64,000 nucleotides of DNA from Promethearchaeota archaeon (GTDB lineage Archaea; Asgardarchaeota; Lokiarchaeia; Sigyniarchaeales; SOKP01), in assembly GCA_048938025.1 (NCBI GenBank), contig JBHLMP010000009.1, positions 8,106 to 72,105 on the forward strand, in the 5' to 3' direction. Position 1 is the stretch's first letter. Every line of letters starts with the position of its first letter. Below, piece after piece: positions 12,641-32,738 of this stretch. The position numbers and the translations under genes were made by a program. The notes under the pieces are model-generated. The model saw only the letters and a list, made by a program, of their open reading frames with translations. It was not told where the DNA came from and ran no database searches.

Positions 12641-14356
12641 TTACTCCTCGCGTAATAACTTTTTATCAATCTTTCCCACAACCGTAAGAGGGAGCTCTTT
12701 TGAAAATTCAATTACTTTAGGAACTTCATAAGGGGAACAATTCTCTTTAGCAAATTTTATTATATCTTCTTTTAATGCATCCACATTTCCATCAAATTCG
12801 TACTCAGGGCTTATTTGTATATAAGCTTTCACTATTTCGGAACCCGGCCTATCTGGATTTGGTAACCCGATTAGAGCAATCATACCTACAGCAGGATGCT
12901 TAGATAAAATATCTTCAACCTTTGTAGAAAATAATTTATAACCCCCCACTATTATCATATCTTTTGTACGATCTACAATTCTAAGGTACCCTCTTTCATC
13001 CATAATTGCGACATCTCCGGAATGCATATATCCATCTTGGTCAATAGCTTTTTTAGTTTCTTCAGGTTTATTATAATATCCTTTCATCACCATAGGACCT
13101 TTTGTACATATTTCTCCTGGCTCCCCTAAGGGAACTACTTCATTAGTATCAGGATCAACTAGTTTTAGTTCTGTATTCAATAATGGTAATCCAATTGAAC
13201 CCAATTTCCTCTCCTTTAAGAAAGGATTCATTGTAGTAAGAGGAGATGTCTCTGTCATTCCATAAACCTCTAGTAATTTACCCTCACCTACAATACTTTC
13301 TAATTGTTTCTGCGATTCTACTGGGAATGGAGACGCAGCTGACATGCAGACTTCCAGACTTGAATGGTCCAACCGCTTAAATTTTCGAGTATTAATCAAT
13401 ATTTGATAAAGCGAAGGTACATTTACAAGAGCAGTTGGTTTATATTTCTTAATCTCATTACAAATAGTTAAGGTATCTCTAGGATCTGGTATAAGCACTT
13501 GCCCCCATCCAAGATAAATACAATTTTCACAAAAAAAGGTACCTGCTATATGAAAAAATGGAAAACCTGATAATGCAATTTTAGCTCCTCTATCCCAACT
13601 AAGCCACTTTTGGACAATAAGTATATCAGAAACACAATTTCTGTGCGTTAACATTGCCCCTTTTGGAGGGCCAGTCGTTCCTCCCGTATATTGGATAAGT
13701 GCTATATCATCAGGTGTTACAATGACATTTGGCGGATCTGTAGGATATTGAGCTAAAACATCATCATGAAAATTAAGAACTGTTTTATTTTCCAATTGAG
13801 TAACTTCTCCTGAAGGAATTTCTCTGACAGCTCGAATTTTTTCTTGTTGTTCTTTTGGAAACATTCCAATAACACTAGTCCATATTACTAATTTCAATTG
13901 AGGCAATTTTGATTCAACATTCATTAATCTATGTTGGAAAATTGCATCTAAGGTCACCAAAGCAACTTTTTTGTCAACAGTACCTAAATCATTTAATTGG
14001 TAATGCATTTGGACATCTGACATAAGCGGACTTACTCCAGAAACTATACATCCTGCTTTAAGAGTTCCAAGAAATGCAATCACATATTCAGGTATATTTG
14101 GTAAATTAATTCCCACTACGTCTCCTCTCTTAAATCCTTGTTTAATTAGCATATTTGCGAATTGATTTGAGTACTTATCCAATTTTCCATATGTAATCTC
14201 TAAACCCTGATATGTCAAAGCCATTTTTTCAGGAAACGTTTCAATAGTATCTTTCACTGCTTCTGTAAATGAAATTTCAAATAAACTAGGATCTAAATCA
14301 GTTAATCCTTCATCCCAATTTTTGCGCCAGAATCGATCTTCATAAGGATTTGACAT
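12641..14356 (-). CDS. AMP-forming acyl-CoA synthetase (fatty-acid-CoA ligase family)
   Basis: Contains YTGGTTGPPKGAML (AMP-binding P-loop), YGMTET, GEICTKGPMVMKGY, SGDVA, DRTKDMI and a C-terminal GKIDKK. Confidence 0.88.
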   Translation of the reverse strand: MSNPYEDRFWRKNWDEGLTDLDPSLFEISFTEAVKDTIETFPEKMALTYQGLEITYGKLDKYSNQFANMLIKQGFKRGDVVGINLPNIPEYVIAFLGTLKAGCIVSGVSPLMSDVQMHYQLNDLGTVDKKVALVTLDAIFQHRLMNVESKLPQLKLVIWTSVIGMFPKEQQEKIRAVREIPSGEVTQLENKTVLNFHDDVLAQYPTDPPNVIVTPDDIALIQYTGGTTGPPKGAMLTHRNCVSDILIVQKWLSWDRGAKIALSGFPFFHIAGTFFCENCIYLGWGQVLIPDPRDTLTICNEIKKYKPTALVNVPSLYQILINTRKFKRLDHSSLEVCMSAASPFPVESQKQLESIVGEGKLLEVYGMTETSPLTTMNPFLKERKLGSIGLPLLNTELKLVDPDTNEVVPLGEPGEICTKGPMVMKGYYNKPEETKKAIDQDGYMHSGDVAIMDERGYLRIVDRTKDMIIVGGYKLFSTKVEDILSKHPAVGMIALIGLPNPDRPGSEIVKAYIQISPEYEFDGNVDALKEDIIKFAKENCSPYEVPKVIEFSKELPLTVVGKIDKKLLREE

Positions 14357-14492
14357 GTATAATATCCACCTTTAATTTTTAATAAAAAAATGAAGTTATT
14401 ATAATTAATATTGATTGAATTAGTTAAAAAGTTTTAATTAATTTGAGATCTTTGACCTTTTTGATCAATTTTTAGGGGTCAATATGTATTTT

Positions 14493-15269
14493 TTAATAAA
14501 ATTTTCTTCTAAAATCTTTAATATATTGATCTTTATCTTCATATTCATACCAAGCAGAACCATATTTTTCTAATTCATACGCATCTTTATATGATTTATC
14601 CATTAAATGGTTACTACATAATTTAATAGCATTTAGGACAGTTTGATTTTTTGGGAAGAGAAATTTAGCTTTATCCATAGCAGCTTCCATTAATTCTTCT
14701 TGGGAATCAACTATTTGATCAATTAATCCAATTTCTAATGCCTTTGTAGAACTGATCTTTTCAGCAAACATTAGAATTCTTTTTGTCCAAGTAATTCCTA
14801 TAACTCTTGTCATTAACACAATTGTACCGGTACCAGGAAAAATACCTAAATTTATTTCAGGCATCATGAAAATACTATCTTTAACAGCTATTCGATAATC
14901 AGAGCAGAGGGAATAGGCAACACCGTCACCCATCGCCTTACCATTAATAGCACAAATGGTTGGCTTTCCATAATATATTAATTTCACAATAGAAGCAGCA
15001 GTTTGTTCATATTCCTTAACAGCAGCATGATTACTTCCATCTACAGAATCTATATCCATCCCTGTTGTAAAACTTGAACCATTTCCAGTTAAGATAATTC
15101 CTCTTATTTTTTCATTATGTATACAAAACTCAATTGCTTTTTTAAGCTCCTTAAGCATTTTAATAGTTAAAGCATTTGCTCGTTCTACTCGATTTAAGGT
15201 AATTATACCAAATCTTTTTTTTATTGAAAATTCAATAAATTCTCCAAGTTCTAAACCTTCAAATGACAT
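14493..15269 (-). CDS. crotonase-fold protein (enoyl-CoA hydratase/isomerase family), paralogue 1
   Basis: Contains ITLNRVERANAL, LTGNGSSFTTGMD, AINGKAMGDGVAYSLCSDYRIA and MPEINLGIFPGTG. Confidence 0.85.
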   Translation of the reverse strand: MSFEGLELGEFIEFSIKKRFGIITLNRVERANALTIKMLKELKKAIEFCIHNEKIRGIILTGNGSSFTTGMDIDSVDGSNHAAVKEYEQTAASIVKLIYYGKPTICAINGKAMGDGVAYSLCSDYRIAVKDSIFMMPEINLGIFPGTGTIVLMTRVIGITWTKRILMFAEKISSTKALEIGLIDQIVDSQEELMEAAMDKAKFLFPKNQTVLNAIKLCSNHLMDKSYKDAYELEKYGSAWYEYEDKDQYIKDFRRKFY

Positions 15270-15313
15270 TTTTATTCCTTTTTATTCTTCTTTAGTTGAA
15301 AAATTTTTTAAAA

Positions 15314-16096
15314 TTATAGTAATGATAATTTTTCTCTAAAATCATTTATAAATTTACTTTTATTAGCATATTCAAACCAGCTTGAAGCTTCTTTTTCTAA
15401 TTCATAAGCATTATGATAATTTTTATCAAGTAAATGATTTGAACATAATTTAATAGCATTTAGAACAATCTGGTTTTTAGGAAAGAGAAATTTTGCTTGA
15501 TCTAAGGCAGTTTCCATTAAATCTTCTTGGGAATCAACTATTTGATCAACTAATCCAATTTCTAATGCTTTTTCAGAGCTAATCTTTTCAGCTAGCATTA
15601 ACATCTTTTTTGTCCAAGGAATCCCGATAATTCTTGTCATTAATATTATACAACCAGTGCCCGGAAAAATACCAGAAAAGATTTCAGGATATTGAAAATA
15701 ACTATCTTTGACACCTATTCTATAATCACAACATAAAAGAAATACAACACCTTCACCCAAACAACGACCATTTATAGCAGCAATCGCGGGTTTTCCATTA
15801 AATAATAACATACAAATCTCCGCAGCAGTTCTTTCAAGGTCTTTTACTGCAGTATTGTCACTACCATCAATAAAACCCAAGTCCATACCTGTACTAAAAG
15901 TTGTCCCATTCGCAGTTAGGATTAAACCTCGAATTTTTTCTGAATTTTGACAGTATTCAATTGCTTTTTTTAAAAATCTCAATTGTTCAACTGTAAAAGC
16001 GTTAGATCTATGAACCCTATTAAGTGTTATTATAGCAAATCTCTTTTTTACATCAAATTCGATGTATTCTCCAAATTCAAGATCTTTTAGAGACAT
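15314..16096 (-). CDS. crotonase-fold protein (enoyl-CoA hydratase/isomerase family), paralogue 2
   Basis: Same motif set as its neighbour (ITLNRVHRSNAF, AINGRCLGEGVVFLLCCDYRIG, YPEIFSGIFPGTG). About 60% identical by eye to paralogue 1. Confidence 0.85.
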   Translation of the reverse strand: MSLKDLEFGEYIEFDVKKRFAIITLNRVHRSNAFTVEQLRFLKKAIEYCQNSEKIRGLILTANGTTFSTGMDLGFIDGSDNTAVKDLERTAAEICMLLFNGKPAIAAINGRCLGEGVVFLLCCDYRIGVKDSYFQYPEIFSGIFPGTGCIILMTRIIGIPWTKKMLMLAEKISSEKALEIGLVDQIVDSQEDLMETALDQAKFLFPKNQIVLNAIKLCSNHLLDKNYHNAYELEKEASSWFEYANKSKFINDFREKLSLL

Positions 16097-16183
16097 AAAT
16101 AAAATTAATTTTCATTTAATAAAAAATAATAATAGTCTTAATGAATATAGTGAGTAATAGGTAATTTTTAATATGTAAAAAAT

Positions 16184-18268
16184 ATGCCTGTTCATATTAC
16201 TGATTTCTTAGAAATAGAGTCTAATGGAATAAGAAAAAAAGATTTAATAAAAGCTCCAAGTTTAAAAAAAACCTTCATCTCAATTAATCAACATTTATAT
16301 GCAAAATTAAAACAAACTGATACAGATACGCGGACTAGATCAAAAGAAATAATCAATCTCTTACTTTGTAAATTAAATGATGAAATTAATAAGGATGATA
16401 ATGAAATTTTAGACTTTTGTATTAAAAAAGGTGAATCAATAGAAGATTTGTATGATAGAATACAAAAGTTATTCGAGAAAAATGTTAAAGAGAAGTATAT
16501 AGAAATCATAGGGGAAAATGAGCAAATCAGCTTAAATAAGGAACTCTTATATCTTATTGTGAATGAATTACAACACATATCGTTATTAAAATCTTCTAAA
16601 GATATATTGAGTGATGCGTTTGAGATTTTTGTAAGTAAGATTTTAAAAGATGAGGGAGGGCAATTCTTTACTCCTCCAAATATTATTGAATTCATGGTAC
16701 ATTATTTAGATCCTCCTGTTGATTCAAAAATATTGGACCCTGCCTGTGGTCATGGAGGATTTCTTCTTGAAGCAAAAGAACTGTTATGGTTAAAAATAAC
16801 CTCAGAAGATAAAAGAATAATTTCAATCTCAAATTTGTTTGGTATTGATAAAGACCTCTTCTTAGCAAAGATTAGTAAATTATACTTAGAAATATTGAGT
16901 AAGGGAAAGTCTTATATTTTTTGTGAAGATTCATTGGATCCTAAGAGTTATGGAACTCAAGCAAAAGAAGAAATAAAAGATAATTTATTTGATTATATTT
17001 TTACTAATCCTCCATTCGGGGTTAAAATTCCTATAAACGATAAAGAAATTTTAAAAGATTACAAACTTGGTCATATTTGGAAAAATATTGGTGATGGCTG
17101 GAAAATGCAAGAAAAGTTAGTAAAACAACAACCACCTCAAGTTTTATTTATTGAAAGGTGTATTCAGTTACTTAAAGACGGAGGAAAGCTAGGTATTGTC
17201 TTACCGGAAGGAATATTCGGAAATCCTACAGATCGCTATATTTGGGAATATTTAACTTCTAATGGTAAAATATTAGCTATTGTCTCATTGGATCAGAATA
17301 CCTTTCAACCTTATACATGTAATAAAACAAGTATTTTATTCTTTCAGAAATTGAATAATATTCCAGCAGATTATACAATTGATTTTGCAATTGTGGAAAA
17401 TGTGGGACATGATAAAGATGGAAAGGTTTTATATAAATTGAATAAAGATGGAACTAAAAAATTAGATTCTGCAGGCTATCCAATAATAAACGATGACCTC
17501 ATAGGGTTACACTTAAAAATAAAAAAGGCTGAAGAATTTAACTATTTAATGGAACAAAAAATCTTTAAGATTAAATTTAGCCAGATTAAAGATAAAATTT
17601 TCATCCCGATTTATTATATCGGTGTAGAAAAAACTTTAAAAAAACTAGCAAACGATAAGAATTTCACACTTTTAAGTATTAAAAAGTTAGCAAAACAAAA
17701 AATAATTTATACTAATAAGAGCGGTTATCTCCCACGAGGAGATGAAATAGGATCTCATGTATATGGTTTAGGAGATATCCCATTTATGAGGACGAGTGAT
17801 ATAAATAATTGGGAAATAAATTTAGATTCATATAAAAAGACAAGCGAAGAAGTTTATAAGCAATATAAACTAAAACAGAATATAGAAGAAGGAGATATCC
17901 TATTAGTTAAAGATGGTGGGCCTAATTTGATTGGTAAAACTGCTTATATAACTAGGTTAGATACCCAAATAATAATTCAGAGTCATATATTCCAGATAAA
18001 AGTATTAGAAAATAATGAATTTCTTGATTCTTATCTTCTTTTGTATTTATTGAATTTAGATATTGTGCAAAAACAAATTCAAGCAATTACTTTTGTTCAA
18101 GGAACAATAGCAACAATTGGAAATAGAATTATGGAAGTAATCTTACCAATCCCCTCGGATATTGAAAAAAGAAAAGAAATCTCAAGATATATAAAAAAGA
18201 TTATTGATGAGAAAACAGAAATAAGGAAGAATATATCCAGATTATCTATAGGATCTTTTAATGACTAA
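16184..18268 (+). CDS. N6-adenine DNA methyltransferase (HsdM-like, gamma class) fused to a single HsdS-like target-recognition domain
   Basis: Contains GQFFTPPNIIEFMV, ILDPACGHGGFLL (motif I) and FDYIFTNPPFG (motif IV NPPF). The C-terminal ~220 aa resemble a type I S-subunit TRD (GDILLVKDGGPNLIGKTAYI...SHIFQIKV...GTIATIGNRIMEVILPIP). Confidence 0.85.
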   Translation: MPVHITDFLEIESNGIRKKDLIKAPSLKKTFISINQHLYAKLKQTDTDTRTRSKEIINLLLCKLNDEINKDDNEILDFCIKKGESIEDLYDRIQKLFEKNVKEKYIEIIGENEQISLNKELLYLIVNELQHISLLKSSKDILSDAFEIFVSKILKDEGGQFFTPPNIIEFMVHYLDPPVDSKILDPACGHGGFLLEAKELLWLKITSEDKRIISISNLFGIDKDLFLAKISKLYLEILSKGKSYIFCEDSLDPKSYGTQAKEEIKDNLFDYIFTNPPFGVKIPINDKEILKDYKLGHIWKNIGDGWKMQEKLVKQQPPQVLFIERCIQLLKDGGKLGIVLPEGIFGNPTDRYIWEYLTSNGKILAIVSLDQNTFQPYTCNKTSILFFQKLNNIPADYTIDFAIVENVGHDKDGKVLYKLNKDGTKKLDSAGYPIINDDLIGLHLKIKKAEEFNYLMEQKIFKIKFSQIKDKIFIPIYYIGVEKTLKKLANDKNFTLLSIKKLAKQKIIYTNKSGYLPRGDEIGSHVYGLGDIPFMRTSDINNWEINLDSYKKTSEEVYKQYKLKQNIEEGDILLVKDGGPNLIGKTAYITRLDTQIIIQSHIFQIKVLENNEFLDSYLLLYLLNLDIVQKQIQAITFVQGTIATIGNRIMEVILPIPSDIEKRKEISRYIKKIIDEKTEIRKNISRLSIGSFND

Positions 18269-18316
18269 GTTATTCCTTATAAAAAATTTAAAAAGTTTGT
18301 TAAATATCTCAATAAG

Positions 18317-18754
18317 ATGAAAATTGAAAAATTTTCTATGGAATTATATGAAAATATAATTAATCTTTGGAGAAAGGCAGGAATTAATGTAGGGTCCACT
18401 GATACGAAAGAAGAAATAGAAAGAATGCTTAAAAGAAATCCAAATCTTTTCCTAATAGGTAGATTAAATGAAAAAATTATTGGTGTTGTGATGGGAGGAT
18501 TCGATGGAAGAAGAGGATATATCCATCATCTGGCAGTAGAACCTGATTATCAAAAAAGAGGATATGGTAAAATGTTGGTAGATGAATTAATTGTGAGGTT
18601 TCATCAGATGAGAGTACATAAAATTCATTTATTCATTGAAAAATATAATAGGACTGTTGTTGATTTCTATAGAAATTTGGGTTGGGAAATTAGAGATGAT
18701 TTGATTATGATGAGTTATGTACCTGATAAAAATTTATACAAGATGAGAATATAA
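18317..18754 (+). CDS. GNAT-family N-acetyltransferase
   Basis: 145 aa, with GYIHHLAVEPDYQKRGYGKMLVDEL (motif A Q/RxxGxG) and FYRNLGWE. Confidence 0.8.
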   Translation: MKIEKFSMELYENIINLWRKAGINVGSTDTKEEIERMLKRNPNLFLIGRLNEKIIGVVMGGFDGRRGYIHHLAVEPDYQKRGYGKMLVDELIVRFHQMRVHKIHLFIEKYNRTVVDFYRNLGWEIRDDLIMMSYVPDKNLYKMRI

Positions 18755-18873: not shown

Positions 18874-20652
18874 ATGAGTAATGAAATTAACGAATATTGG
18901 ATGAAATTATGGCCCAAAGAAACACCTCGCCATGTTGACTATGATAAAATATCCTTAGGAGAGATGTTAAGAAACACTGCTGAAACTTACCCTGAAAGTA
19001 AAGCAATATATTTTGAAGGTTTTAGAATGACATATAAAGAATTAGATAAAGCAGTAGATCAATTTGCTACAGCTCTTGCAAGGATGGGAATTAAAAAGGG
19101 TGATGTTGTTCTTATAGATTTACCTAATGTCCCCCAATTTGTAATAGCATACTATGGTATAGTTCGAATTGGTGCAATAGCAAATCCCATTATTCCTTTA
19201 AATAGATTTACCGAAATTGTGCATCAAACAAATGATTCTAAAGGAAAAATGCTTATAATTTTAGATGTTCTTTATGAAGAACATTTGCATAAAAATGATT
19301 TGACTAAAATGCCCACTTTGAAAGATATTATACTGACTGGAATTGCCGAATATCTACCCCCAATGAAAGCTAAATTAGGAACTGCTTTAGGAAAGGTACC
19401 GAGAATGAAGAAATGGCCAAAAAAAGTAGGAGATGTGAATTTTCATGAATTTCAAGATTTTTTGTCAAGAGGATTTCCAATCGATTTACCTGATGTAAAA
19501 ATTGACCCGATTAATGATGTTTCAACTTTAATATACACGGGTGGTACTACAGGGCTTCCAAAAGGGTGTATGATGTCACATTTTAATTTTGTGGTAAATG
19601 CGCAACAGGGTAGTACTTTTGTGCGAACTCAATTACCAAAAGTAGAAGAAACTTTAGGTAAAGGGGGAATGTTTGTGGTTTTGCCTTTAGCACATGAATT
19701 CGCATTATCAATAGCTATGAATATTGGAGTATATCATAGTTATAATCTTATATTATTCCCACAACCTCCTGCCAAGCTTTCAAAAATATTAAAAATGATT
19801 AAAAAGGAAAATGTAACTTTTGGCCCTGGAGTGCCAACTTTATGGAATAAGATTAGCCAAGACCCCGATTCTATTAAATATAAAGGGAAACTTGATTCTC
19901 TTATTGCATGCTTAAGTGGGGCTTCTGCTCTTCCTTTAGAAGTGAAACAAGAATTTGAGGATATTACTGGTGCATTAATCGTAGAAGGTTTTGGAATGAG
20001 TGAGACCAGTCCAATATTAACAGTCACCCCATTCCATAAATATAAAGAAAATACAGTAGGTTTCCCAGTGTCAGATACATTGATAAAAATTGTTGATCCT
20101 GAAGATGGTACTAAAATCTTACCCCAATGCCCCAATGAATCCTGCGAAGATTGTGGTACAAATGAAGCACAATACATTGGTGAGATTTGCGGATGTGGAC
20201 CCCAGGTATTTCTAGGGTATTTAAATAGACCAGATGCTACTGAATATGCATTGAGAAAAGATTCAAAAGGAAGAACCTGGTATTATACTACAGATATTGG
20301 TTGTATAGACCGTGATGGATATCTACATATTAAGGACCGTAAAAGAGATATGATTAAATATAAGGCACATAGTGTATTTCCAAGAGAAGTAGAAGATTTG
20401 ATGTATCTTCATGAAGCTATTAATGAAGTTGGCGTTGTTGGGGTTCCAGATCCAGAAGTGGGAGAAAATATTAAAGCTTATGTATCCCTCAAACCAGAAT
20501 ATCAAGGTAAGATATCAGAAGGTGATCTAAGAGAATGGTGTAAAGCAAATATTTCGGCATTTAAATATCCTAGAATTATTGAGATTATCCCAGAATTGCC
20601 TAAGTCTGTAGTAGGTAAAATATTACGGCGTGAATTAAGAACTAAAGAATAA
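18874..20652 (+). CDS. AMP-forming acyl-CoA synthetase with Cys-rich insertion
   Basis: Contains YTGGTTGLPKGCMM, GFGMSETS, TTDIG, DRKRDMIK and GKILRR. An extra segment, QCPNESCEDCGTNEAQYIGEICGCGP, precedes the A8-like region. Confidence 0.88.
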   Translation: MSNEINEYWMKLWPKETPRHVDYDKISLGEMLRNTAETYPESKAIYFEGFRMTYKELDKAVDQFATALARMGIKKGDVVLIDLPNVPQFVIAYYGIVRIGAIANPIIPLNRFTEIVHQTNDSKGKMLIILDVLYEEHLHKNDLTKMPTLKDIILTGIAEYLPPMKAKLGTALGKVPRMKKWPKKVGDVNFHEFQDFLSRGFPIDLPDVKIDPINDVSTLIYTGGTTGLPKGCMMSHFNFVVNAQQGSTFVRTQLPKVEETLGKGGMFVVLPLAHEFALSIAMNIGVYHSYNLILFPQPPAKLSKILKMIKKENVTFGPGVPTLWNKISQDPDSIKYKGKLDSLIACLSGASALPLEVKQEFEDITGALIVEGFGMSETSPILTVTPFHKYKENTVGFPVSDTLIKIVDPEDGTKILPQCPNESCEDCGTNEAQYIGEICGCGPQVFLGYLNRPDATEYALRKDSKGRTWYYTTDIGCIDRDGYLHIKDRKRDMIKYKAHSVFPREVEDLMYLHEAINEVGVVGVPDPEVGENIKAYVSLKPEYQGKISEGDLREWCKANISAFKYPRIIEIIPELPKSVVGKILRRELRTKE

Positions 20653-25605: not shown

Positions 25606-26109
25606 TTACTCTTTGCTGATATCTAAATCCTTTGCGTCATCTTCTACTAAATCATAGTATTCTATGTCATTTAATCCGCCAGTGATATTTTCTGCCCAAT
25701 GAACTTTAACTGGCATTCCAATATAAGTATCTTTTAAATCCACTTCAGGATTTAACTCACCCATCTCTGTTGTATCAGCTCCATCTTGGCGGATCAATAC
25801 CATTGGCTTTTCCCGAATTTCACCTGTTTCTGGATCTTTTAGATAAGCTATTGCATATGTAGAAACTTCACCTGTTTCTCGTAAATCAACCCATTGATCT
25901 GGTTTTATCATACATTTTCCACACACATATCTAGGAGGGAAAAAAACTCTATTACATCCTGGACATTTCAAACCAATCAATTTCTTCTCTTTTAATTTTT
26001 CTAAAAAAGGTTGAAAATGAGTAATATTAAATTTAAAATTATAACTGGTCAAATACCAATTACTTGGCATTGTTCTAGTCCTTTTATAGTCTCTTTTAAC
26101 GTAGTCCAA
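25606..26109 (-). CDS. DUF35 Zn-ribbon/OB-fold protein
   Basis: Contains CPGCNRVFFPPRYVCGKC plus an OB-fold tail. The TTG start is from the track; an alternative ATG (MPSNWYL) lies at 26070. Confidence 0.8.
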   Translation of the reverse strand: MDYVKRDYKRTRTMPSNWYLTSYNFKFNITHFQPFLEKLKEKKLIGLKCPGCNRVFFPPRYVCGKCMIKPDQWVDLRETGEVSTYAIAYLKDPETGEIREKPMVLIRQDGADTTEMGELNPEVDLKDTYIGMPVKVHWAENITGGLNDIEYYDLVEDDAKDLDISKE

Positions 26110-26142
26110 AGATTTCCTTTGAGTTAATTTTGACAGCTTAAT

Positions 26143-27390
26143 TCACCTCCATTTTCTCTGGGGTTCATCTGACATCACCATCATTGTACATAAATTAAGT
26201 ATTCCGCCCCACCCATGCCCGATAGCAGTATGAACCGTTTTAGGTACTTGATTACTGGCTTTTCCCATTATCTGTAAGGCAGCAACAGCAGGTCTCTCTA
26301 ATGCAGATGCTCCAATTGCATTAGTAGAATTAACACCTCCTGAACAGCATATTGGCAATTCACCATTTAACGCAGTTACTCCATTTTCGTACATCTGTGG
26401 AGCTGTAGTTTCTTCAAATAAACCCAATTTTTCAACCCACATGAGTTCCTGATTAGGGAATGGAGCATAAACTTCAGCATAATCTATTTCTTTTCGAGGA
26501 AAGGAGATCCCTGCCTGATTATAAGCCAATTCAGATGATTTCATTGCCCCTAATTGTTCTGAGGGATCTATTTGTCCTGATCCACTACAGTCATATCCAA
26601 GAACAGCTGTCTCATGAGCAATACTAGCCACACCATTTACATAAACGGGAATATCACACACATCTTTAGCTTTTTCTTCTGTTGTAAATAAAACCGCACA
26701 AGCACCATCACTTGCAGGACAAACCATCCCATATCTTAAGGGATAGGATATATAGGGCGTGTCCAAAACTTCTTCAATGGTAACATTTGGCATTTTTAAA
26801 TGAGCCCACCAAGTTTTTGCAGCATTACGTCTATTTTGTACCACCACTCTAGCCAAATCTTCTTCAGTTATCTTTGATTTACTCATATAATTAGTTGCTT
26901 GATATGAGGCTACACCAATAGCTGCACCTGCTGATAAAATACGTGTTAATCGTTCATAATCAATTCCTAGAGTATTGTAAATAGTAATTTCCCCATAGGC
27001 TACACTAGCTAAACCAGTAGCAGTGTTACCCTGGCTTTGTTGTTCAAAGCCAACGGCAAGTACTGTATCAATTCCGGGTAATCCTGCTGCAACAGTATAA
27101 TAACCGGCAATTGCAACAGTACCTCCTGTGGTACCCCCAGTTGTAACTCGCATTAATGGTTTATTTCTCGCTCCCATCCAATCGGTCATCCATAATTCCG
27201 GAATATTTGACCCTTCAAAGGCAGGCATATTTCCATTTACATAAGCATCAATATCTTCAAAACTTACGCTTGGAACTTTCTTTAAGCAATCTTCTATTGC
27301 TTCACTCACTAATTCAGGCATACTAACATCAGATCGTTTTGACGCATGTTCACTAAATCCTGCTGAAACTATTGCCACTTGCCTTCCCAT
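26143..27390 (-). CDS. thiolase-fold protein, catalytically degenerate (no Cys nucleophile, no HD(C/A)F, no GH..GATG His)
   Basis: Start re-set to MGRQVAIVSAGF (ATG 27390, 1 nt after the upstream stop). Contains RVTTGGTTGGTV, QNRRNAAKTWWAH, EVYAPFP and CCSGGVNSTNAIGASA. Confidence 0.8.
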   Translation of the reverse strand: MGRQVAIVSAGFSEHASKRSDVSMPELVSEAIEDCLKKVPSVSFEDIDAYVNGNMPAFEGSNIPELWMTDWMGARNKPLMRVTTGGTTGGTVAIAGYYTVAAGLPGIDTVLAVGFEQQSQGNTATGLASVAYGEITIYNTLGIDYERLTRILSAGAAIGVASYQATNYMSKSKITEEDLARVVVQNRRNAAKTWWAHLKMPNVTIEEVLDTPYISYPLRYGMVCPASDGACAVLFTTEEKAKDVCDIPVYVNGVASIAHETAVLGYDCSGSGQIDPSEQLGAMKSSELAYNQAGISFPRKEIDYAEVYAPFPNQELMWVEKLGLFEETTAPQMYENGVTALNGELPICCSGGVNSTNAIGASALERPAVAALQIMGKASNQVPKTVHTAIGHGWGGILNLCTMMVMSDEPQRKWR

Positions 27391-27391
27391 T

Positions 27392-28534
27392 TTAATTACT
27401 CCCCTCCAATACATACACGATATTATTTTGAGCACACATACCTATTTGACCAGAGGCTACAGCTTTTTTTGCCCCTTTAACTTGATATTGATTCCCTTCT
27501 CCTTTTAATTGTTTAGCAGCTTCGATTATTCTTATTAATCCTGTTGCACATGGTGGATTCCCTCCTATTGCTCCTCCAGAAGGATTTATTGGTAATTCGC
27601 CATTTATATTTGAATCAATATTTAAACCTTTACCTTTTTCAGCAAACCCCAACGCCTCAGTAAATATTAGTTCTTCATGAGCATAAGCCTCAAATAATTC
27701 AGCGATATCTATTTCGTCTCGTGGATTTTTAATTCTAGCCGATTTAAATGCCATTTTGCCAGCTAATTCCATTGATTTACTTGTTGATAAATCTCTATCA
27801 CCAAGATAATAACCTTCTTGACTATAGCCTACACCCGTGATCCAGACAGGATTTTCTGTTATTTTTAAAGCTTGTTTCTCAGGTGCTAATAATAAAGCAG
27901 CAACTCCATCACAAGGTTGAGCAACCATTAATTCTGTTACTGGATCAGCATAAATTTCTGACTCTAACACATCTTTAACGGTAAGGTTTGGATTTTGAGA
28001 TTCTGCTAAGGATAATGGATTTTTAGCGGCATTTTTCCTATTTTTTACAGCGATTTTAGCAATATCTTCAGCACTAATGCCATACTTCTCCATATATGCT
28101 CGCATTTGAAATCCAGCAGCAGTAATATCATTAACATAAGCAACGGGTCTTTCCCAAGTTGGATCTGTTTCATATAATCGAGCAGAGTGATATGGAAAGC
28201 ATGAAGCCATACTTCCACCCCAAACAACTGCTAGTTTATGATTACCAGATAATATCCTCATTAATCCATACAAAACAGCATGAGCACCATCCATTTCTAC
28301 TTTACTCTCATCGCTCATATATCCTCCACCAACTTCAACAGTAAAGCAATTTGATATCGTGCGTCCTTCATAATAATCATTAGTGCAAGAGATAACAGTT
28401 GTAATATCCTTTTTCTTTAAACCAACCATGTCAAGTGCACCTCTAACAGCTTCAAAAATCATTTCATACCGACCATAATTAGCATCTGAATACAATTTTA
28501 CTTGATTATATCCTACAATACCTACTTTTTGCAT
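27392..28534 (-). CDS. thiolase-fold protein, catalytically degenerate paralogue
   Basis: Contains MQKVGIVGY, KVEMDGAHAVLYG, AVKNRKNAAKNP, ELFEAYA and NPSGGAIGGNPPCATG. Confidence 0.8.
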   Translation of the reverse strand: MQKVGIVGYNQVKLYSDANYGRYEMIFEAVRGALDMVGLKKKDITTVISCTNDYYEGRTISNCFTVEVGGGYMSDESKVEMDGAHAVLYGLMRILSGNHKLAVVWGGSMASCFPYHSARLYETDPTWERPVAYVNDITAAGFQMRAYMEKYGISAEDIAKIAVKNRKNAAKNPLSLAESQNPNLTVKDVLESEIYADPVTELMVAQPCDGVAALLLAPEKQALKITENPVWITGVGYSQEGYYLGDRDLSTSKSMELAGKMAFKSARIKNPRDEIDIAELFEAYAHEELIFTEALGFAEKGKGLNIDSNINGELPINPSGGAIGGNPPCATGLIRIIEAAKQLKGEGNQYQVKGAKKAVASGQIGMCAQNNIVYVLEGSN

Positions 28535-28552
28535 GGTTCTTTTTACCTCCCA

Positions 28553-29017
28553 CTATAATTTTCTGAAACCCTTAATATCTGAAGGGTCACCTTTTGTTTT
28601 TTCTTCCCATACAGCTTTTACTTTCATTCCAGTTTTGATCTCTTCTGGGTTTATATCCAAAAGACGATAAACTATCCCTGTATTGCTACCATCAATTTGT
28701 ATCATCCCGATTATTTGAGGTTTTTTTACTTTTCGAGTAGTTCTATCATTCACCTTATAATATGTGACAGTGTAATTTAGCAAAATTCCTGTTTCAGGCA
28801 AATTAATCCAGTTTTGGTCCAAAGGAATTGTAATATTACATATTCCACAGATTTTTCTTGGAGGTACAAAAATTTTTCCACATTTCGGACATTTATTTCC
28901 AATGAATTTCTTGTTTTCAAGAGCATCATAGAATTTATCCATGTACTGACCAACCCAAAAATTAAATTCCGCTCTTATAAGTCCCTTATTAGCTACTATT
29001 ACCTTTTCTTCACTCAT
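28553..29017 (-). CDS. DUF35 Zn-ribbon/OB-fold protein
   Basis: Contains CPKCGKIFVPPRKICGIC followed by an OB-fold. It lies 18 nt upstream of the thiolase-like gene. Confidence 0.85.
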   Translation of the reverse strand: MSEEKVIVANKGLIRAEFNFWVGQYMDKFYDALENKKFIGNKCPKCGKIFVPPRKICGICNITIPLDQNWINLPETGILLNYTVTYYKVNDRTTRKVKKPQIIGMIQIDGSNTGIVYRLLDINPEEIKTGMKVKAVWEEKTKGDPSDIKGFRKL

Positions 29018-29231: not shown

Positions 29232-29834
29232 TTAAAATGTAAAACCCTCTGGTAGTTCTGACTCGTGTGTACCTTTAACAACAAACATTAAATCCATAAT
29301 TGTATAGGTTGGATTCTTGGTTCGAAAGATTGGCACAACACTTTTTCCTATTTCTGGTTCTCCGACAACTAACACGCTCATAAGAATAGTGACTACTTCT
29401 TCGTCAAATTCAACGTTTATGAATTTGATTGGTTTTGGCAAGACATTAAAAGCTCCAGAACGATGAGTAATAATAAATGAGTGGATTTTTGCAGTTTTCT
29501 GAGCTTTTTCAGTAATATCTATAACGGTATTTTTTCTTAGGCAATCTGGGCAATAAATTCTAAAAGGCAAGTGAATTGATCCTTTAAATTCACATTGATC
29601 ATTATCACATCTTGTCGCCATTAGTTTTCCCTTTCCAAGAGATTCGAAAAAAATAGCCTCACCACCATAAGAGTGGATATACGTCATATCTCTTGGATTT
29701 GTAACTCCAGCCAATTTTCCAGTATCTTCGTTAAAAATGGGTTGATTTGCCTCTATAATATGAAATTTTCCTTTTGGTTTGTATCTTCTATTAATTATGG
29801 AAACAAAACCTTTTTCTTCTTCAGTTTTTGGCAT
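29232..29834 (-). CDS. DUF35 Zn-ribbon/OB-fold protein (long form)
   Basis: Start re-set to MPKTEEEKGF, preceded by GGAGG and 5 nt after the upstream stop. The zinc ribbon is CDNDQCEFKGSIHLPFRIYCPDC. The track N-terminus (29835-29960) overlaps the upstream gene. Confidence 0.75.
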   Translation of the reverse strand: MPKTEEEKGFVSIINRRYKPKGKFHIIEANQPIFNEDTGKLAGVTNPRDMTYIHSYGGEAIFFESLGKGKLMATRCDNDQCEFKGSIHLPFRIYCPDCLRKNTVIDITEKAQKTAKIHSFIITHRSGAFNVLPKPIKFINVEFDEEVVTILMSVLVVGEPEIGKSVVPIFRTKNPTYTIMDLMFVVKGTHESELPEGFTF

Positions 29835-29839
29835 CTTTT

Positions 29840-31261
29840 TTATTCCTCCTTTATTAAGTGATTTGGATGCATTAAAATCGTACAAGTCACATGTGATCCT
29901 ACTCCAGCGTGACTTATTGCTAAACCTCTTTTTGCACCTTTTACTTGAAGACTTGTCCAATCCTTTGGTTTTTCACGACCAAATTCTTTCCATTTTTCTT
30001 CAGGCTCATGAATTTCATCCCATCGATTCCAGAGATGATATCCTATTTCAGCAATTTGCATAAGACCAGTTGCTCCTACAGCATGCATACAACCGATTAA
30101 TCCACCACATAAATTGCTAGGTAATTTACCTGGTTTTTTAGTATTTGGGTTTGTATGATATGCATCACCTGTTTCGATATAATCACGTCCATCTCCATAC
30201 GAACGAATACCAATATCTTCATAAGTTTGAATATCACTAATTGTAAAGGCATCATGGAGTTCCACAACATCAAGATCGTCAGTTGGATCAATAATCCCCG
30301 TCATATTATATGCATAATAAGCTGCTATACGTGCAGCTAAAAAACTGCTAAAACCGGGATATCTATCACCCCCGGGAAATCTTTTACCTAAATTATCATA
30401 TTGTCCTGGCTTTTCATTTGGTAAAAGGGGTATTTTCATATTACGACGATCAGCCACTCTTAAAGTGTGGCTTCCTGCACCAATCCAAATCCGAAGTGGA
30501 TTATCTGTTATTTCATATGCTGTTTTTTCATCACAAACAATACCACATGCAGCTCCAACACTCATTAGACAACAATCTAACGCACGTAAGGGATAAGCAA
30601 TAACAGGAGAATTAATTACATCCTCAACCGTGATTTTCATAGGCCCATGTGCGTGAGGATTCATTCTGGCATAACCACGATTTTTAACTGCAATTTCAGC
30701 CATAGTTTTTCTAAAAGAATCTTCTGCTTTACCAAAAATTTGCCAATATCTTTGAGCCATTACAGCATAATAACCAGTATAAATATGACCCAATGGTGTT
30801 TCCCAATCTTTATCAGCAGCACAAGATATAAGGTGGTTTCCCTCGTCAGTTGGGACTTCATCCATTCTCTCCCACCCCATAGCTAGAGCGCAATCACTAT
30901 ATCCAGAAGCAACAGTTTTAATTGCTTCCCACATCGTTGAACCTCCTGTAGCTCCACCTGTTTTGACACCAATGGTTCCTAATGGATCTAAACCCAATCT
31001 ATCGTGAATAACTGCTTCTCCTAGTAATTGATCTCCAAAATGATCTGCAAAATGCCCATAATAAGCAGTATGTATGAAACTCTTCAGTTCAGCAGGTGTC
31101 ATTTTAACAAAATCTGCTGCAGCTGTTAATGCTTGGATGCATAATTCTTCAGTTCGCGTTTCTGGAAAAGCTCTGTCGAATTTTGACATACCAACTGTAG
31201 CTAAATAAACTGGTCGCATTAATTTCGGTATTTTTAATTGTTTATCACTAAATTTAATCAT
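29840..31261 (-). CDS. thiolase-fold protein (473 aa) apparently lacking the nucleophilic Cys
   Basis: Contains GVKTGGATGGSTMWEAIKTVASGYSDCALAMGWE, AVKNRGYARMNPHA, ELHDAFT and CGGLIGCMHAVGATG. Confidence 0.85.
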   Translation of the reverse strand: MIKFSDKQLKIPKLMRPVYLATVGMSKFDRAFPETRTEELCIQALTAAADFVKMTPAELKSFIHTAYYGHFADHFGDQLLGEAVIHDRLGLDPLGTIGVKTGGATGGSTMWEAIKTVASGYSDCALAMGWERMDEVPTDEGNHLISCAADKDWETPLGHIYTGYYAVMAQRYWQIFGKAEDSFRKTMAEIAVKNRGYARMNPHAHGPMKITVEDVINSPVIAYPLRALDCCLMSVGAACGIVCDEKTAYEITDNPLRIWIGAGSHTLRVADRRNMKIPLLPNEKPGQYDNLGKRFPGGDRYPGFSSFLAARIAAYYAYNMTGIIDPTDDLDVVELHDAFTISDIQTYEDIGIRSYGDGRDYIETGDAYHTNPNTKKPGKLPSNLCGGLIGCMHAVGATGLMQIAEIGYHLWNRWDEIHEPEEKWKEFGREKPKDWTSLQVKGAKRGLAISHAGVGSHVTCTILMHPNHLIKEE

Positions 31262-31430
31262 ATTGATTACACTTTTTAGAGCTTCACGCCTTTTTATTTT
31301 TAGTATTTAGTTTTCAAATATATTTGATAATTTATTGTTATGTTTTATTTTGATTAATAACTTACTATTGAAACTAATAAATTTAGATGGGAAATAAATC
31401 CTACTCAATTTAAAAAAAATTTAAAATCTT

Positions 31431-32738
31431 ATGAAGATTGTCTTATTTATTATGGATAAAAGAGTCCCAGAATTACCAAAACTTGAAATTAGCGGATATA
31501 TTGCTGAATTAGACTTATTAAATAACCCAATATTTACAGTTAAAGAGAAAGAATTTATATCTGAATTTTATGACTTTATGGAAGAAAATCTTGAAAGAGA
31601 TCTGAAGACCTTAGAAGAACTAAATTATTTGGCAGAAGAACCGATACAAGAGAAGAAACGGGAAATTGTTGTTAATTTAATAAAAAAATTAGCAGAAAAA
31701 GGTTATTACAGTACGGTTATTGATTCAGAAGATTATGACCTTGGTAAAGTAACTCGAAATGCTCTTATAGCATTAGCCCTAAGCGGAGGTTTTTGGTCAA
31801 CAAATAGTGATAGGTATATTAATGGTAATTGGAGTGTTGAGATGGGTAGATTAGCAGGAGGAACTCTTTACTGCAATCCAGTAAATTATAAAGCAAATGA
31901 CTATCAGAGAAGAGAATTTTTAAATCCTGTTGTTAAATATGGCGCAATGGCAGCTTCAGCTATGACAGAATTTAATGCCGGTAGTGATATTATTAGAATT
32001 GAACTAAGACTAGATGAAAAAGATAATGAAGTAATTGCAAATGGCAAGAAACTCTTTATAGTAAACGGAATGTTAGCAGATTATATTATGTTATATGGTA
32101 GATTAAATAATGGAAAATTAGGAGCAATTATTGTAGATACGGAAAATCAACAACTGAAAAATTTTGAATCATCACGGGTAATTATGTATGGTATGAGAGA
32201 CGCCTTTGTCAGTCGCTTAGTATTTGATGATGTAAGACTCCCTAAAGAAAATCTTCTTGAAGGGGATGGTTTAGATATTATGTTTCATCAATTAACTGAA
32301 GAACGACTGGTAATTAGTTCAGAAGCTTTGGGAGATAGCATAAAAAAATTATTCTATTCTCATAGTTTTGCACTTCAACGTGAACAATTTCAACGAAAAC
32401 TATATCAATATCAAATAATTCGATTTCCAATTACTAAGAATATGCGTGAAGTGAATCTATATCTTTCAGCATTGTTGAATTATACTCGAGAAATTGATAA
32501 CAAACCACAATTAGGAAGTTCAAAAATAATGGCTTCTCAGGCAATGGGTTTGAAAATTGAAACTTGTGAATTGGCTTTTCAAAGCTCAATTGATTTATTT
32601 AGAACTATGGGTGGTCGTGGATTTACAGAACAATACTGTAATCAAATTGGGCTTCTTGATGCTTATTGTATGATACATGGCGGAGGTAGTCATTATATTT
32701 TAGGAGATTCAGAATCTCGAAAGTTTTTTAAGCGGTAA
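31431..32738 (+). CDS. acyl-CoA dehydrogenase-family flavoprotein (divergent, N-terminally extended)
   Basis: Contains AMTEFNAGSDI (FAD/acyl-CoA loop, cf. TEPxAGSD), LTEERLVISSEALG (helix G) and a C-terminal GGRGF...IHGGGSHYILGD. An alternative start lies at ATG 31452. Confidence 0.7.
   Translation: MKIVLFIMDKRVPELPKLEISGYIAELDLLNNPIFTVKEKEFISEFYDFMEENLERDLKTLEELNYLAEEPIQEKKREIVVNLIKKLAEKGYYSTVIDSEDYDLGKVTRNALIALALSGGFWSTNSDRYINGNWSVEMGRLAGGTLYCNPVNYKANDYQRREFLNPVVKYGAMAASAMTEFNAGSDIIRIELRLDEKDNEVIANGKKLFIVNGMLADYIMLYGRLNNGKLGAIIVDTENQQLKNFESSRVIMYGMRDAFVSRLVFDDVRLPKENLLEGDGLDIMFHQLTEERLVISSEALGDSIKKLFYSHSFALQREQFQRKLYQYQIIRFPITKNMREVNLYLSALLNYTREIDNKPQLGSSKIMASQAMGLKIETCELAFQSSIDLFRTMGGRGFTEQYCNQIGLLDAYCMIHGGGSHYILGDSESRKFFKR

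Follow-up and report, generated by a model that had tools for sequence, protein, structure and literature searches.

Do the thiolase-like genes of Lokiarchaeia encode thiolases? This question is raised by a 64-kb stretch of DNA from a Promethearchaeota archaeon of the class Lokiarchaeia (GenBank assembly GCA_048938025.1, contig JBHLMP010000009.1), here called the window, in which a gene island at 12641–32738 encodes a set of acyl-CoA enzymes including four thiolase-fold proteins. An original prediction, made from the letters of the window, had proposed that these four proteins have lost the nucleophilic Cys and that the island serves one dedicated acyl-CoA pathway. Coordinates are given as positions in the window, which has a G+C content of about 30%, and the genes of the island are labelled G1 to G18. 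Domains were assigned by Pfam, NCBIfam and PDB searches, which agree with the predicted inventory of two AMP-forming ligases, two crotonases, four thiolase-fold proteins, a FabK/NMO-like flavoenzyme, an acyl-CoA dehydrogenase (ACAD) and a threonine aldolase. The closest homologues of every island protein come from Promethearchaeota/Lokiarchaeia metagenome-assembled genomes (MAGs). Here we describe three conserved families of thiolase-fold proteins that are without the machinery for thiolysis and that are each encoded with DUF35 partners. Judged by their active-site residues, the four proteins of the island are almost certainly not ordinary beta-oxidation thiolases.

Active sites of the thiolase-fold proteins

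The four proteins, namely G8 (21891–23132, plus strand, 413 aa), G13 (26143–27390, minus strand, 415 aa), its partner G14 (27392–28534, minus strand, 380 aa) and G17 (29840–31261, minus strand, 473 aa), all contain the Thiolase_N and Thiolase_C_1 domains and so have the thiolase fold. The start of G13 was reset to 27390, since its homologues align from residue 16. Residue states were read from phmmer alignments to solved structures. The Cys of the archaeal AACASG motif (6ESQ and 7YVY; Cys85 of 6ESQ) stands opposite Gly in G8 (TGGATGG), G13 (TGGTTGG) and G17 (TGGATGG), and the CxS nucleophile motif of the archaeal thiolase becomes GxT in G8. In G14 the nucleophile loop (VEMDGAH) is three residues shorter and free of Cys, so that the predicted replacement of Cys by Gly in all four proteins holds for three of them while the absence of Cys holds for all. 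In none of the four proteins is a Cys to be found within 15 residues of the nucleophile position, which speaks against a catalytic Cys that is present but slightly shifted.

The acid/base Cys of the HDCF motif is also lost, the motif being HDAF in G8, HDAF in G17, YAPF in G13 and FEAY in G14. G8 and G17 thus retain the His and Asp of HDxF. The His of the GH motif is present in G8 (GHAVGATG) and in G17 (MHAVGATG), and is replaced by Asn in G13 (TNAIGAS) and G14 (GGNPPCATG). Beyond the Gly and the DUF35 partner that they share with known thiolase-fold aldolases, G8 and G17 have the look of a thiolase minus its nucleophile, as far as their residues tell.

Conservation and selection

An alignment (MAFFT) of G8 with 109 full-length homologues, down to 52% identity and drawn from Loki-, Hel- and Hermodarchaeota, Thermoplasmatota, Nitrospirota and other bacteria, contains xGG[AS]TG in every sequence; HDAF and GHAVG[AG]T are likewise found in all, save for one sequence that is gapped at HDAF. 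An exhaustive HMMER search with G13 returned only 74 clusters at the 50%-identity level with E ≤1e-30, and across 24 sequences of 30–86% identity to G13 the residues Y308, N357, G86 and G89 are invariant, with Y-x-[PA]-F at the site equivalent to HDCF. The motifs of G14 are fixed in about 120 homologues of 83–91% identity. The G17 orthologue in locus L013, 89% identical, has the same motifs as G17. All of the thiolase-fold open reading frames (ORFs) found in Asgard loci, covering about 60 loci of related species, are Cys-less. True thiolases with Cys, HDCF and GH motifs lie beside G8-like genes only in the bacterial loci L083 and L084, where the G8-like gene therefore would add a different function. 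Since the substitutions are fixed in every orthologue examined, the loss of Cys goes far beyond chance, and the alignments place it as ancestral to whole families and under strong purifying selection.

The ratio of nonsynonymous to synonymous substitution rates (dN/dS) against the closest genome, that of locus L009, is 0.053 for G8 (0.03–0.05 overall), 0.044 for G13 and 0.082 for G14, and for G17 it is 0.058 against L013. These are the lowest values in the island; the crotonases, the threonine aldolase (LtaE) and the methylase range from 0.11 to 0.17 against L009. The G+C content is 0.35–0.38 over the thiolase-fold genes against a background of 0.27–0.30. Together with the very low dN/dS, the raised G+C content suggests constraint and not a foreign origin.

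Another heteromeric module without Cys, missing from the window, is present in other Lokiarchaeial genomes (L009, 17.6–21.2 kb; L026, 4.4–6.8 kb; L035, 5.0–7.5 kb; L048, 15.8–16.9 kb). Its two subunits carry FNGGGTGV / YDPF / GNPIAAT and CGDGI / DDRF / GNxLEATG, and two DUF35 genes accompany them. Its YDxF is even nearer than the G13 motif to the YDHF of Ltp2 and the YDCY of Sal, two steroid side-chain aldolases described below.

DUF35 and SCP2 partners

Every thiolase-fold gene of the island is coupled in an operon to at least one DUF35 gene. G9 (23129–23623, plus strand), the partner of G8, contains a zf-ChsH2 Zn-ribbon and an OB_ChsH2_C OB fold, and its start overlaps the G8 stop. G15 (28553–29017, minus strand; identified by Pfam) is the first and G12 (25606–26109, minus strand; zf-ChsH2 with a weak OB domain) is the last gene of the four-gene operon G15-G14-G13-G12. 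G16 (29232–29834, minus strand, 200 aa) is a divergent DUF35-like protein whose start, reset to 29834 at a Met that overlaps the G17 stop, overlaps the end of G17; its orthologue follows the G17 orthologue in L013. Of the four predicted DUF35 proteins, G9, G12 and G15 are clear, each passing the threshold for at least one of zf-ChsH2 and OB_ChsH2_C, whereas G16 stays below threshold for both domains while having them in the correct order.

G10 (23626–23997, plus strand) is the third gene of the G8 operon and encodes a small protein, predicted to have the SCP2 fold. It falls just below the Pfam SCP2 threshold itself (18.7 against 21.3 bits, E 0.002), but this family is matched by 26 of the 28 orthologues (best E 2.6e-6). 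Their consensus makes G10 an SCP2-fold protein, as predicted originally.

Relationship to known thiolase-fold systems

Two thiolase-fold enzymes that need a DUF35 partner and cleave steroid side chains as aldolases are known, namely TcLtp2-ChsH2 (PDB 6OK1) and CtSal-Shy (PDB 9MYR) (PMC12329534). CtSal has Gly at the nucleophile position, whose backbone NH contacts the beta-hydroxyl of the substrate, and because of this Gly it is incapable of thiolytic cleavage; an equivalent Gly has been proposed for TcLtp2 (PMC12329534). Both use as catalytic base the Tyr that opens the motif equivalent to HDCF (YDHF in TcLtp2, YDCY in CtSal), and the general acid is Tyr344 in Ltp2 and Cys304 in Sal (PMC12329534).

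The island proteins share the SCP2-type thiolase fold with Ltp2 and Sal, and G8, G13 and G17 share the nucleophile Gly. The base Tyr is matched by G13, whereas G8 and G17 have His and G14 has Phe at this position. At the position of Ltp2 Tyr344 and Sal Gln352, G8 and G17 have His and G13 and G14 have Asn, and at that of Sal Cys304 the residue is Ala in G8, G17 and G14 and Pro in G13. G13 thus lacks the Asp and the general acid of Ltp2/Sal, and G14 aligns Phe, Glu, Ala, Tyr with the Tyr, Asp, Cys, Tyr of CtSal. Genes for Ltp2 and Sal adjoin a MaoC hydratase, as do relatives of G8 elsewhere, while the window has crotonases instead. DUF35 is free-standing in the island and fused to the hydratase in the Ltp2/Sal systems. 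Furthermore, Ltp2 and Sal belong to steroid degraders, whereas the hosts of the island are anaerobic archaea and no steroid genes are present. By these comparisons the island proteins are not members of the Ltp2/Sal family, and they have probably lost the Cys independently.

Structural and sequence affinities point to archaeal thiolases. An AlphaFold2 model of G8 (pLDDT 84.5) confirms the thiolase fold and is closest to the Methanothermococcus ACAT 6ET9/6ESQ (TM 0.84/0.89), followed by SCP2-thiolases, Pyrococcus PFC_04095, Sulfolobus ST0096 and BbsB, with Ltp2 at rank 30. Among PDB sequences, G8 matches archaeal ACAT with E 8e-49, and Ltp2 and Sal are hits 10 and 17. ACAT of the ACAT/HMGS/DUF35 complex (6ESQ/6ET9) is therefore the nearest known relative of G8 and shares with it the HDxF and GHx motifs and an adjacent DUF35 gene. 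It uses CxS, though, where G8 has GxT, a change that makes the ping-pong thiolase mechanism impossible. In contrast to the ACAT/HMGS and Sulfolobus ketothiolase (KT)/DUF35 systems, the window has no HMG-CoA synthase, SDR reductase or MaoC dehydratase gene. The benzoylsuccinyl-CoA thiolase BbsAB (PDB 7PXP) likewise consists of thiolase and DUF35 subunits and has HDAF in place of HDCF together with a GH motif; BbsB, however, keeps the nucleophilic Cys (QSACSAG) that G8 and G17 have lost. In the eukaryotic SCPx and the zebrafish SCP2-thiolase (PDB 6HSJ), thiolase and SCP2 are fused, while here they are the separate products G8 and G10 of one operon. SCPx is an active Cys thiolase without DUF35, whereas in the island the Cys is gone and a DUF35 gene lies between G8 and G10.

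A specific kinship of the Tyr-type family (G13) to Ltp2, Sal or the trypanosomal SLP was considered and rejected by a PDB profile search, in which 4YZO, 6ESQ and 7YVY rank first and Ltp2 eighth; the profile matches ST0096, 6ESQ and 7YVY better than Ltp2 or Sal. Outside Lokiarchaeia the nearest relatives found for G13 and G14 come from uncultured Actinomycetota and Bathyarchaeia at no more than 44% identity, and a cluster look-up returned only environmental sequences of Actinomycetota, Bathyarchaeia and Lokiarchaeia. The actinobacterial Ltp3 and Ltp4, which are annotated as aldol-lyases of C24-branched sterol side chains (Wilbrink 2012, as cited in PMC6593523), resemble G13/G14 in being two adjacent, mutually divergent thiolase-like genes without a thiolase role. 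In NCBIfam, G17 matches PRK06365 'thiolase domain-containing protein' (671 bits against a cut-off of 695), G13 is nearest to PRK08313, and G14 is nearest to PRK06065, PRK06066 and PRK07937, the last being a 'lipid-transfer protein' model, associated with Ltp4, that G14 matches over its full length with 193 bits. The names of the matched PRK models are only 'thiolase domain-containing' or 'lipid-transfer' protein. Current annotations of such proteins read 'acetyl-CoA acetyltransferase' or 'thiolase family protein'.

Crotonases, acyl-CoA dehydrogenase and the missing 3-hydroxyacyl-CoA dehydrogenase

G2 (14493–15269, minus strand) is a crotonase-fold protein (ECH_1, 138 bits) and G3 (15314–16096, minus strand) is its paralogue with 65% identity. 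Both share the full-length ECH_1 fold of the crotonase superfamily and the Glu of its PEI motif. In comparison to 5ZAI and other hydratases, GGGLEL has become GDGVAY in G2 and GEGVVF in G3, which leaves Ala and Val, respectively, at the position of the first catalytic Glu, so that neither protein has the two Glu residues of a hydratase. The second catalytic Glu is conserved (PEINLG in G2, PEIFSG in G3). We take these two residues to be the equivalents of rat ECH Glu144 and Glu164. One-Glu crotonases without the first Glu include enoyl-CoA isomerases and the hydratase-lyase HCHL. The alignment to 5ZAI thus bears out the predicted loss of the first Glu and retention of the second, and both states are conserved in the orthologues and in a set of about 120 homologues that come exclusively from Asgard MAGs. 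Three residues upstream of the lost Glu, at the central Gly of the oxyanion-hole GGG, G2 has Asp and G3 has Glu. These acids are conserved in the same sequences, and the clade, found only in Asgard MAGs, thus carries a relocated acidic residue. Such a shift leaves hydratase activity possible and comes close to what the original prediction had itself named as counting against it, namely a catalytic residue moved by a few positions. We know of no characterised crotonase in which the acidic residues are arranged in this way. In three loci (L013, L026 and L052) a canonical two-Glu crotonase (GGGLE...PEV) directly follows G8-G9-G10.

G18 (31431–32738, plus strand) is a divergent ACAD with Acyl-CoA_dh_M and Acyl-CoA_dh_1 domains; its N-terminal domain is too divergent for a Pfam match and the overall match reaches only about 90 bits. 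It has Glu at position 255 of medium-chain acyl-CoA dehydrogenase (MCAD), within LTEERLV, and Gly at position 376, and these motifs are conserved in its orthologues. Its best PDB match is 1EGC, the MCAD T255E/E376G mutant, with the same states. We take Glu at 255 with Gly at 376 to be the arrangement of isovaleryl-CoA and long-chain acyl-CoA dehydrogenases (IVD/LCAD), with which G18 shares the Glu on helix G and the Gly at 376. The Glu-255 state is also present in 11 of 12 other ACADs beside G8-like genes of Helarchaeota and bacteria, G18 orthologues excluded. The idea that G18 is a non-canonical enzyme was therefore rejected: the Glu was predicted at the correct, IVD-like place, but it belongs to a known IVD/LCAD-type base variant and does not speak against dehydrogenase chemistry. 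ACAD G18 and the ligases are ordinary enzymes.

Among the window ORFs scanned by Pfam (roughly at least 100–120 aa), no 3HCDH, SDR or ETF family was found. Likewise, tblastn of the whole 64 kb with a Clostridium acetobutylicum Hbd (3-hydroxybutyryl-CoA dehydrogenase) probe gave no match, while the same probe matched homologues in loci L022, L055, L075 and L084. The predicted absence of a 3-hydroxyacyl-CoA dehydrogenase is upheld within these searches. The window also contains no MaoC, HMG-CoA synthase or carboxylase gene.

Organisation and conservation of the neighbourhood

The island consists of five co-directional, tightly spaced groups, namely G3-G2-G1, G4-G5-G6, G8-G9-G10, G15-G14-G13-G12 and G17-G16. 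Within G8-G9-G10 the stop and start codons overlap or abut. G11 is located between this group and G15-G14-G13-G12, and G18 lies beside G17-G16 in divergent orientation. Neighbourhoods were compared by a pattern scan of one genome per GTDB species, which gave 559 confirmed G8 relatives, of which the best 80 loci were analysed.

G8 and G9 are adjacent in nearly all loci that extend far enough, and where an Asgard locus leaves space for a third gene, this is G10 in 51 of 52 cases. The order of the window is kept throughout in L009 alone, which is a close relative. Elsewhere the modules G1–3, G4–6, G12–15 and G16–18 turn up again near G8, but their order and orientation differ. In 22 of 48 Lokiarchaeial loci the distance from G8 to an upstream G7 is 4 kb or less, though unrelated genes often intervene, and G11 is downstream of G10 in 15 loci, within 4 kb in 7 of 41. 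In L017, for example, the spaces between are filled by genes for a Ras-like GTPase, longin, OsmC and a polar-amino-acid ABC transporter. A single conserved 20-kb operon or island can hence be rejected, as the modules are reshuffled, inverted or split by unrelated genes in other Lokiarchaeial species. The one dedicated pathway island that had been proposed resolves into five small operons and two unrelated genes that are shuffled elsewhere, two of the operons standing alone in other phyla. Co-occurrence of the gene set holds in so far as the modules recur across Lokiarchaeia, but not as a fixed order outside L009, nor outside Asgard, where only the G8-G9 pair persists.

In Thermoplasmatota the order is ligase, MaoC, G8-like, DUF35, ligase, and a MaoC hydratase gene lies directly upstream of the G8 homologue in seven loci of this phylum. 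Three bacterial loci, from Desulfobacterota and a Desulfovirgula MAG, also have a MaoC gene in the vicinity, and one Helarchaeota locus gives a weak match. Locus L083 of a Desulfobacteraceae MAG (8127–16206) combines a G8-like gene with DUF35, BKACE, AMP-ligase, MaoC, ACAD, FMN reductase and ligase genes; upstream of them lie a true Cys thiolase and a KASIII/HMGS-DUF35 fusion. Elsewhere among bacteria, and in Helarchaeota, the G8-G9 pair is found by itself, as is a DUF35-thiolase-thiolase-DUF35 cassette arranged as G15–G12 in uncultured Actinomycetota. When 135 unassigned ORFs from the neighbourhood of G8 in Asgard loci were assigned by Pfam, transporters prevailed; sparser are four aldehyde:ferredoxin oxidoreductases (AOR), two Fe-dependent and two Zn-dependent alcohol dehydrogenases (ADH) and two copies of BKACE, the beta-keto acid cleavage enzyme. 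Six loci have an AOR gene no more than 10 kb from a G8 homologue, and in two of them it comes directly after LtaE.

A possible aldolase-type reaction and its alternatives

What reaction could such complexes catalyse? We tentatively favour, with a little less than even confidence, the reading that they are non-thiolytic, enolate-based C–C lyases or condensing enzymes of aldolase type, which reversibly cleave or form the bond between C-alpha and C-beta. Three kinds of thiolase-fold/DUF35 complex would have given up covalent acyl-Cys catalysis and kept the parts that bind CoA thioesters and stabilise enolates, which in G8 and G17 would be the His of HDxF, the His of GHx and the Gly-rich nucleophile loop, with Tyr in place of the first His in G13. 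The reaction, which would proceed without an acyl-enzyme, may be the interconversion of a 3-hydroxyacyl-CoA with an aldehyde or ketone and acetyl-CoA (or propionyl-CoA), as in the steroid side-chain aldolases Ltp2-ChsH2(DUF35) and Sal-Shy(DUF35). G13 and G14 would form a heteromer, gripped by two DUF35 proteins, in which G13 would do the catalysis. Acids would be activated by the ligases, the enoyl-CoA and 3-hydroxyacyl-CoA would come from the IVD-type ACAD and the unusual pair of crotonases, and the SCP2-fold G10 may hold a hydrophobic substrate. Such a route needs neither a 3-hydroxyacyl-CoA dehydrogenase nor a thiolase, which fits their absence. We infer the reaction, its direction and its substrate from residue states, conservation, operons and synteny that can be read directly in the genomes. 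The FabK-like reductase and the aldehyde-related neighbours allow the synthetic direction, while the ACAD and the ligases fit a degradative one.

This reading is supported by the family-wide loss of Cys, the invariance of Gly, Tyr and Asn, the fixed motifs of G14, the strong purifying selection, the coupling to DUF35, the MaoC, AOR and ADH neighbours, the true thiolases and canonical crotonases that accompany G8-type genes in some loci and the absence of a 3-hydroxyacyl-CoA dehydrogenase. The aldolase/lyase chemistry that had originally been suggested in place of beta-oxidation thus keeps the Cys-less thiolases, the Sal/Ltp2 precedent, the Tyr of G13 and the MaoC neighbours in its favour but loses the argument from the ACAD.

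Several points weigh on the other side. The assignment of a reaction to all of the families draws on sequence and precedent. G8 and G17 lack the Tyr base and the acid of the aldolases and keep both thiolase His residues, and archaeal ACAT, SCP2-thiolases and BbsB resemble them more, both by sequence and by predicted structure, than Ltp2 and Sal do; G13 has the Tyr but lacks an evident general acid. Three residues past the lost GH-His, a Cys is retained throughout the G14 family (GGNPPCATG in G14, PC[AG]TG in about 120 homologues), which by its position could be either a relocated nucleophile or a structural residue. The crotonases G2 and G3 may not be hydratases. Lone modules in Helarchaeota, several bacteria and Actinomycetota have no hydratase, ACAD or ligase nearby, and as the modules are so often alone, guilt by association is weak. 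AOR genes are present in only 6 of about 80 loci, which are phylogenetically non-independent. Finally, FabK-type enzymes reduce enoyl thioesters, which points to a synthetic or fermentative direction rather than degradation.

The last point leads to the first alternative, chain building, in which an aldehyde and acetyl-CoA would be joined to a 3-hydroxyacyl-CoA on the Cys-less complex, dehydrated by a crotonase and reduced to acyl-CoA by the FabK-like enzyme, giving elongation towards butyrate or fatty acids without acyl carrier protein (ACP), malonyl units or a ketoreductase. We consider it unlikely. FabK enoyl reductases are indeed the best matches of G7, which lies within 4 kb of G8 in the 22 of 48 loci mentioned above, but the linkage is loose, with Ras-like GTPase, longin and OsmC genes in between in L017, and G7 is only 51–64% conserved. 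The window lacks a ketoreductase and a 3-hydroxyacyl-CoA dehydrogenase (Pfam-scanned ORFs and tblastn) as this route requires, and aldehyde-forming LtaE and aldehyde-handling AOR and ADH recur nearby; no acyl-CoA reductase is present, however, that could remake the aldehyde for iteration, and the ACAD and the two AMP-forming ligases better fit degradation. KT/DUF35 complexes drive fatty-acid synthesis in Sulfolobus, and Asgard genomes have a mean of 3.8 KT/DUF35 pairs (bioRxiv 10.1101/2024.07.05.601840), yet elongation based on an aldol reaction is without precedent. An extension of this idea, which we regard as rather improbable, is that Lokiarchaeia and other anaerobes with G8/G9 run a C2 cycle on CoA thioesters without thiolase or 3-hydroxyacyl-CoA dehydrogenase. 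On the Cys-less complexes acetyl-CoA would be condensed with an aldehyde, or a 3-hydroxyacyl-CoA cleaved to an aldehyde and acetyl-CoA; in the synthetic direction the threonine aldolase could supply acetaldehyde, and dehydration would fall to the GDG/GEG crotonases and the last step to the FabK-like reductase, giving butyrate or fatty acids without ACP, malonyl-CoA or ketoreductase.

That the proteins are no enzymes at all but scaffolds, assembling with DUF35 and with active partners encoded elsewhere (thiolase, HMG-CoA synthase, reductases), is also doubtful. A scaffold has no need for the His pair and the Gly-rich loop that are invariant in G8 across phyla or for the invariant Tyr of the G13 family, the thiolase-fold genes have the lowest dN/dS in the island, and the modules are self-contained operons, some of which occur by themselves in other phyla and lack an active partner next to them. 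Nevertheless, G13 and G14 have lost all three canonical motifs, the proteins would be comparable to the inactive HMGS-like subunits of PhlABC and MucABC, there are documented thiolase-superfamily/DUF35 assemblies in which some subunits are catalytically dead (PMC12960953), and DUF35 acts as a scaffold in the archaeal ACAT/HMGS and Sulfolobus fatty-acid synthesis complexes. Lower still is the probability we give to decarboxylation of malonyl-, methylmalonyl- or beta-carboxyacyl-CoA, or another use of the enolate without chain cleavage. Such a role is suggested by trypanosomal SLP, which is without the nucleophilic Cys, has YDCF at the place of the Y-x-[PA]-F of the G13 family and, according to the discussion in PMC12329534, was earlier reported to have malonyl-CoA decarboxylase activity; G8 and G17 also retain the oxyanion-hole residues. 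SLP has no DUF35 partner, though, and matches more distantly than archaeal thiolases, CtSal shows no decarboxylase activity with similar residues (PMC12329534), and the window has no carboxylase. It is very improbable that the proteins are ordinary thiolases of beta-oxidation or butyrate fermentation, working through a relocated nucleophile or direct attack by CoA. Their homologues are annotated as such, BbsB is a true thiolase that shares HDAF without the second Cys, and the conserved Cys near the GH loop of G14 could be brought forward; against this, all four lack a Cys near the nucleophile position, CtSal with Gly there cannot do thiolysis (PMC12329534), NCBIfam goes no further than 'thiolase domain-containing protein', and bacteria have Cys-containing thiolases beside G8-like genes.

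Implications for Asgard metabolism

In Asgard reconstructions, a "3-ketoacyl-CoA thiolase" together with a fatty-acid-CoA ligase has served as a marker of butyrate fermentation or beta-oxidation (Imachi 2020, PMC7015854). A count of about 3.8 pairs of ketothiolase and DUF35 genes in each Asgard genome has been taken as support for fatty-acid synthesis in the lineage ancestral to eukaryotes, in a study whose main text does not contain the word "cysteine" (bioRxiv 10.1101/2024.07.05.601840). The genes described here are among the most constrained of the region and yet currently pass for ketothiolases or thiolases. Should they have another function, the capacities for butyrate, beta-oxidation and fatty acids that have been inferred for Lokiarchaeia need re-examination, and if the C2 cycle were true, the Asgard "ketothiolase/DUF35 pairs" would be a different, hitherto unknown kind of fatty-acid machinery. 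Our literature search found no earlier notice of Cys-less thiolases in Asgard or other archaea, nor of an Asgard SCP2/thiolase operon; non-thiolytic thiolase-fold/DUF35 enzymes are already known, but all of them come from bacteria that degrade steroids and their catalytic residues differ. The families whose function is at issue number at least three, namely the His-His type of G8/G17, the Tyr-type heteromer of G13/G14 and the GDG/GEG crotonases, and the G8 family reaches Thermoplasmatota, Nitrospirota and Desulfobacterota.

Other genes of the island and the window

G1 (12641–14356, minus strand, 571 aa) is an AMP-forming acyl-CoA ligase with AMP-binding and AMP-binding_C domains and a canonical YTGGTTGPPKG motif. 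The second ligase, G6 (18874–20652, plus strand, 592 aa; assigned by Pfam), has orthologues of 60–80% identity. G7 (20690–21730, minus strand), transcribed divergently from G8, is a FabK-like FMN-dependent enoyl-thioester reductase of the NMO family. It scores above the cut-off for NMO (152 bits) and below that for TIGR03151 FabK (178 against 453 bits), its best PDB matches are all FabK (4IQL, 5GVH, 7L00 and 2Z6I, E ~5e-39), and it retains the GGH segment.

G11 (24511–25566, plus strand) encodes the pyridoxal phosphate-dependent L-threonine aldolase LtaE (Beta_elim_lyase, 303 bits). In other loci its neighbours are an amino-acid ABC transporter or an AOR gene. AOR genes directly follow the threonine aldolase in L027 (5290–7143) and L039 (13888–15741), and one directly follows G10 in L061 (10166–12034). 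A polar-amino-acid ABC transporter lies between G10 and the threonine aldolase in L017 and, by family counts, in other loci. The arrangement suggests a module that converts threonine to glycine and acetaldehyde and the latter to acetate. The part in acyl-CoA chemistry that had been predicted for this enzyme, which is only loosely linked to the other genes, probably gives way to an apparent link with amino-acid uptake and aldehyde oxidation.

Two genes in the middle of the island are absent from the original inventory. G4 (16184–18268, plus strand, 694 aa) encodes an N6 DNA-methylase-like protein with N6_Mtase and Eco57I domains that is unrelated to acyl-CoA, and G5 (18317–18754, plus strand) a GNAT acetyltransferase (Acetyltransf_1). 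Orthologues of G4 share 66–86% identity in about 17 loci with synteny to G5 and G6 kept, and G5 adjoins G4 and G6 in many loci. The G4-G5-G6 trio recurs at 60–86% identity in about 17 Lokiarchaeial species loci, where no nuclease partner was seen. By its conservation G4 appears to behave as a conserved core gene and not as a mobile restriction-modification element. It is possible that G5 could regulate the adjacent ligase G6 through lysine acylation.

Upstream of the island, 2583–8659 holds carbon monoxide dehydrogenase/acetyl-CoA synthase genes (pyridine-nucleotide disulphide oxidoreductase, CooS/prismane protein, 4Fe-4S protein, CdhC and the epsilon subunit), and between them and the island a 598-aa peptidase of family C25 (gingipain-like) is encoded at 9144–10940. 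Just downstream of the island, an RNase H-like / PolB-exonuclease-like protein (32843–33814) precedes a GlpA/GlpD-like FAD-dependent glycerol-3-phosphate dehydrogenase with DAO and DAO_C domains (33904–35586). Four ORFs at 43103–45760 and 47561–52043 (922, 568, 543 and 287 aa) are without a significant Pfam match, the 568-aa ORF giving only weak matches to MG2 and DUF4625. The window also encodes a RagA/Gtr1-like GTPase and, at 52085–54013, Ftr and Mtd of the tetrahydromethanopterin (H4MPT) C1 branch of the Wood-Ljungdahl pathway.

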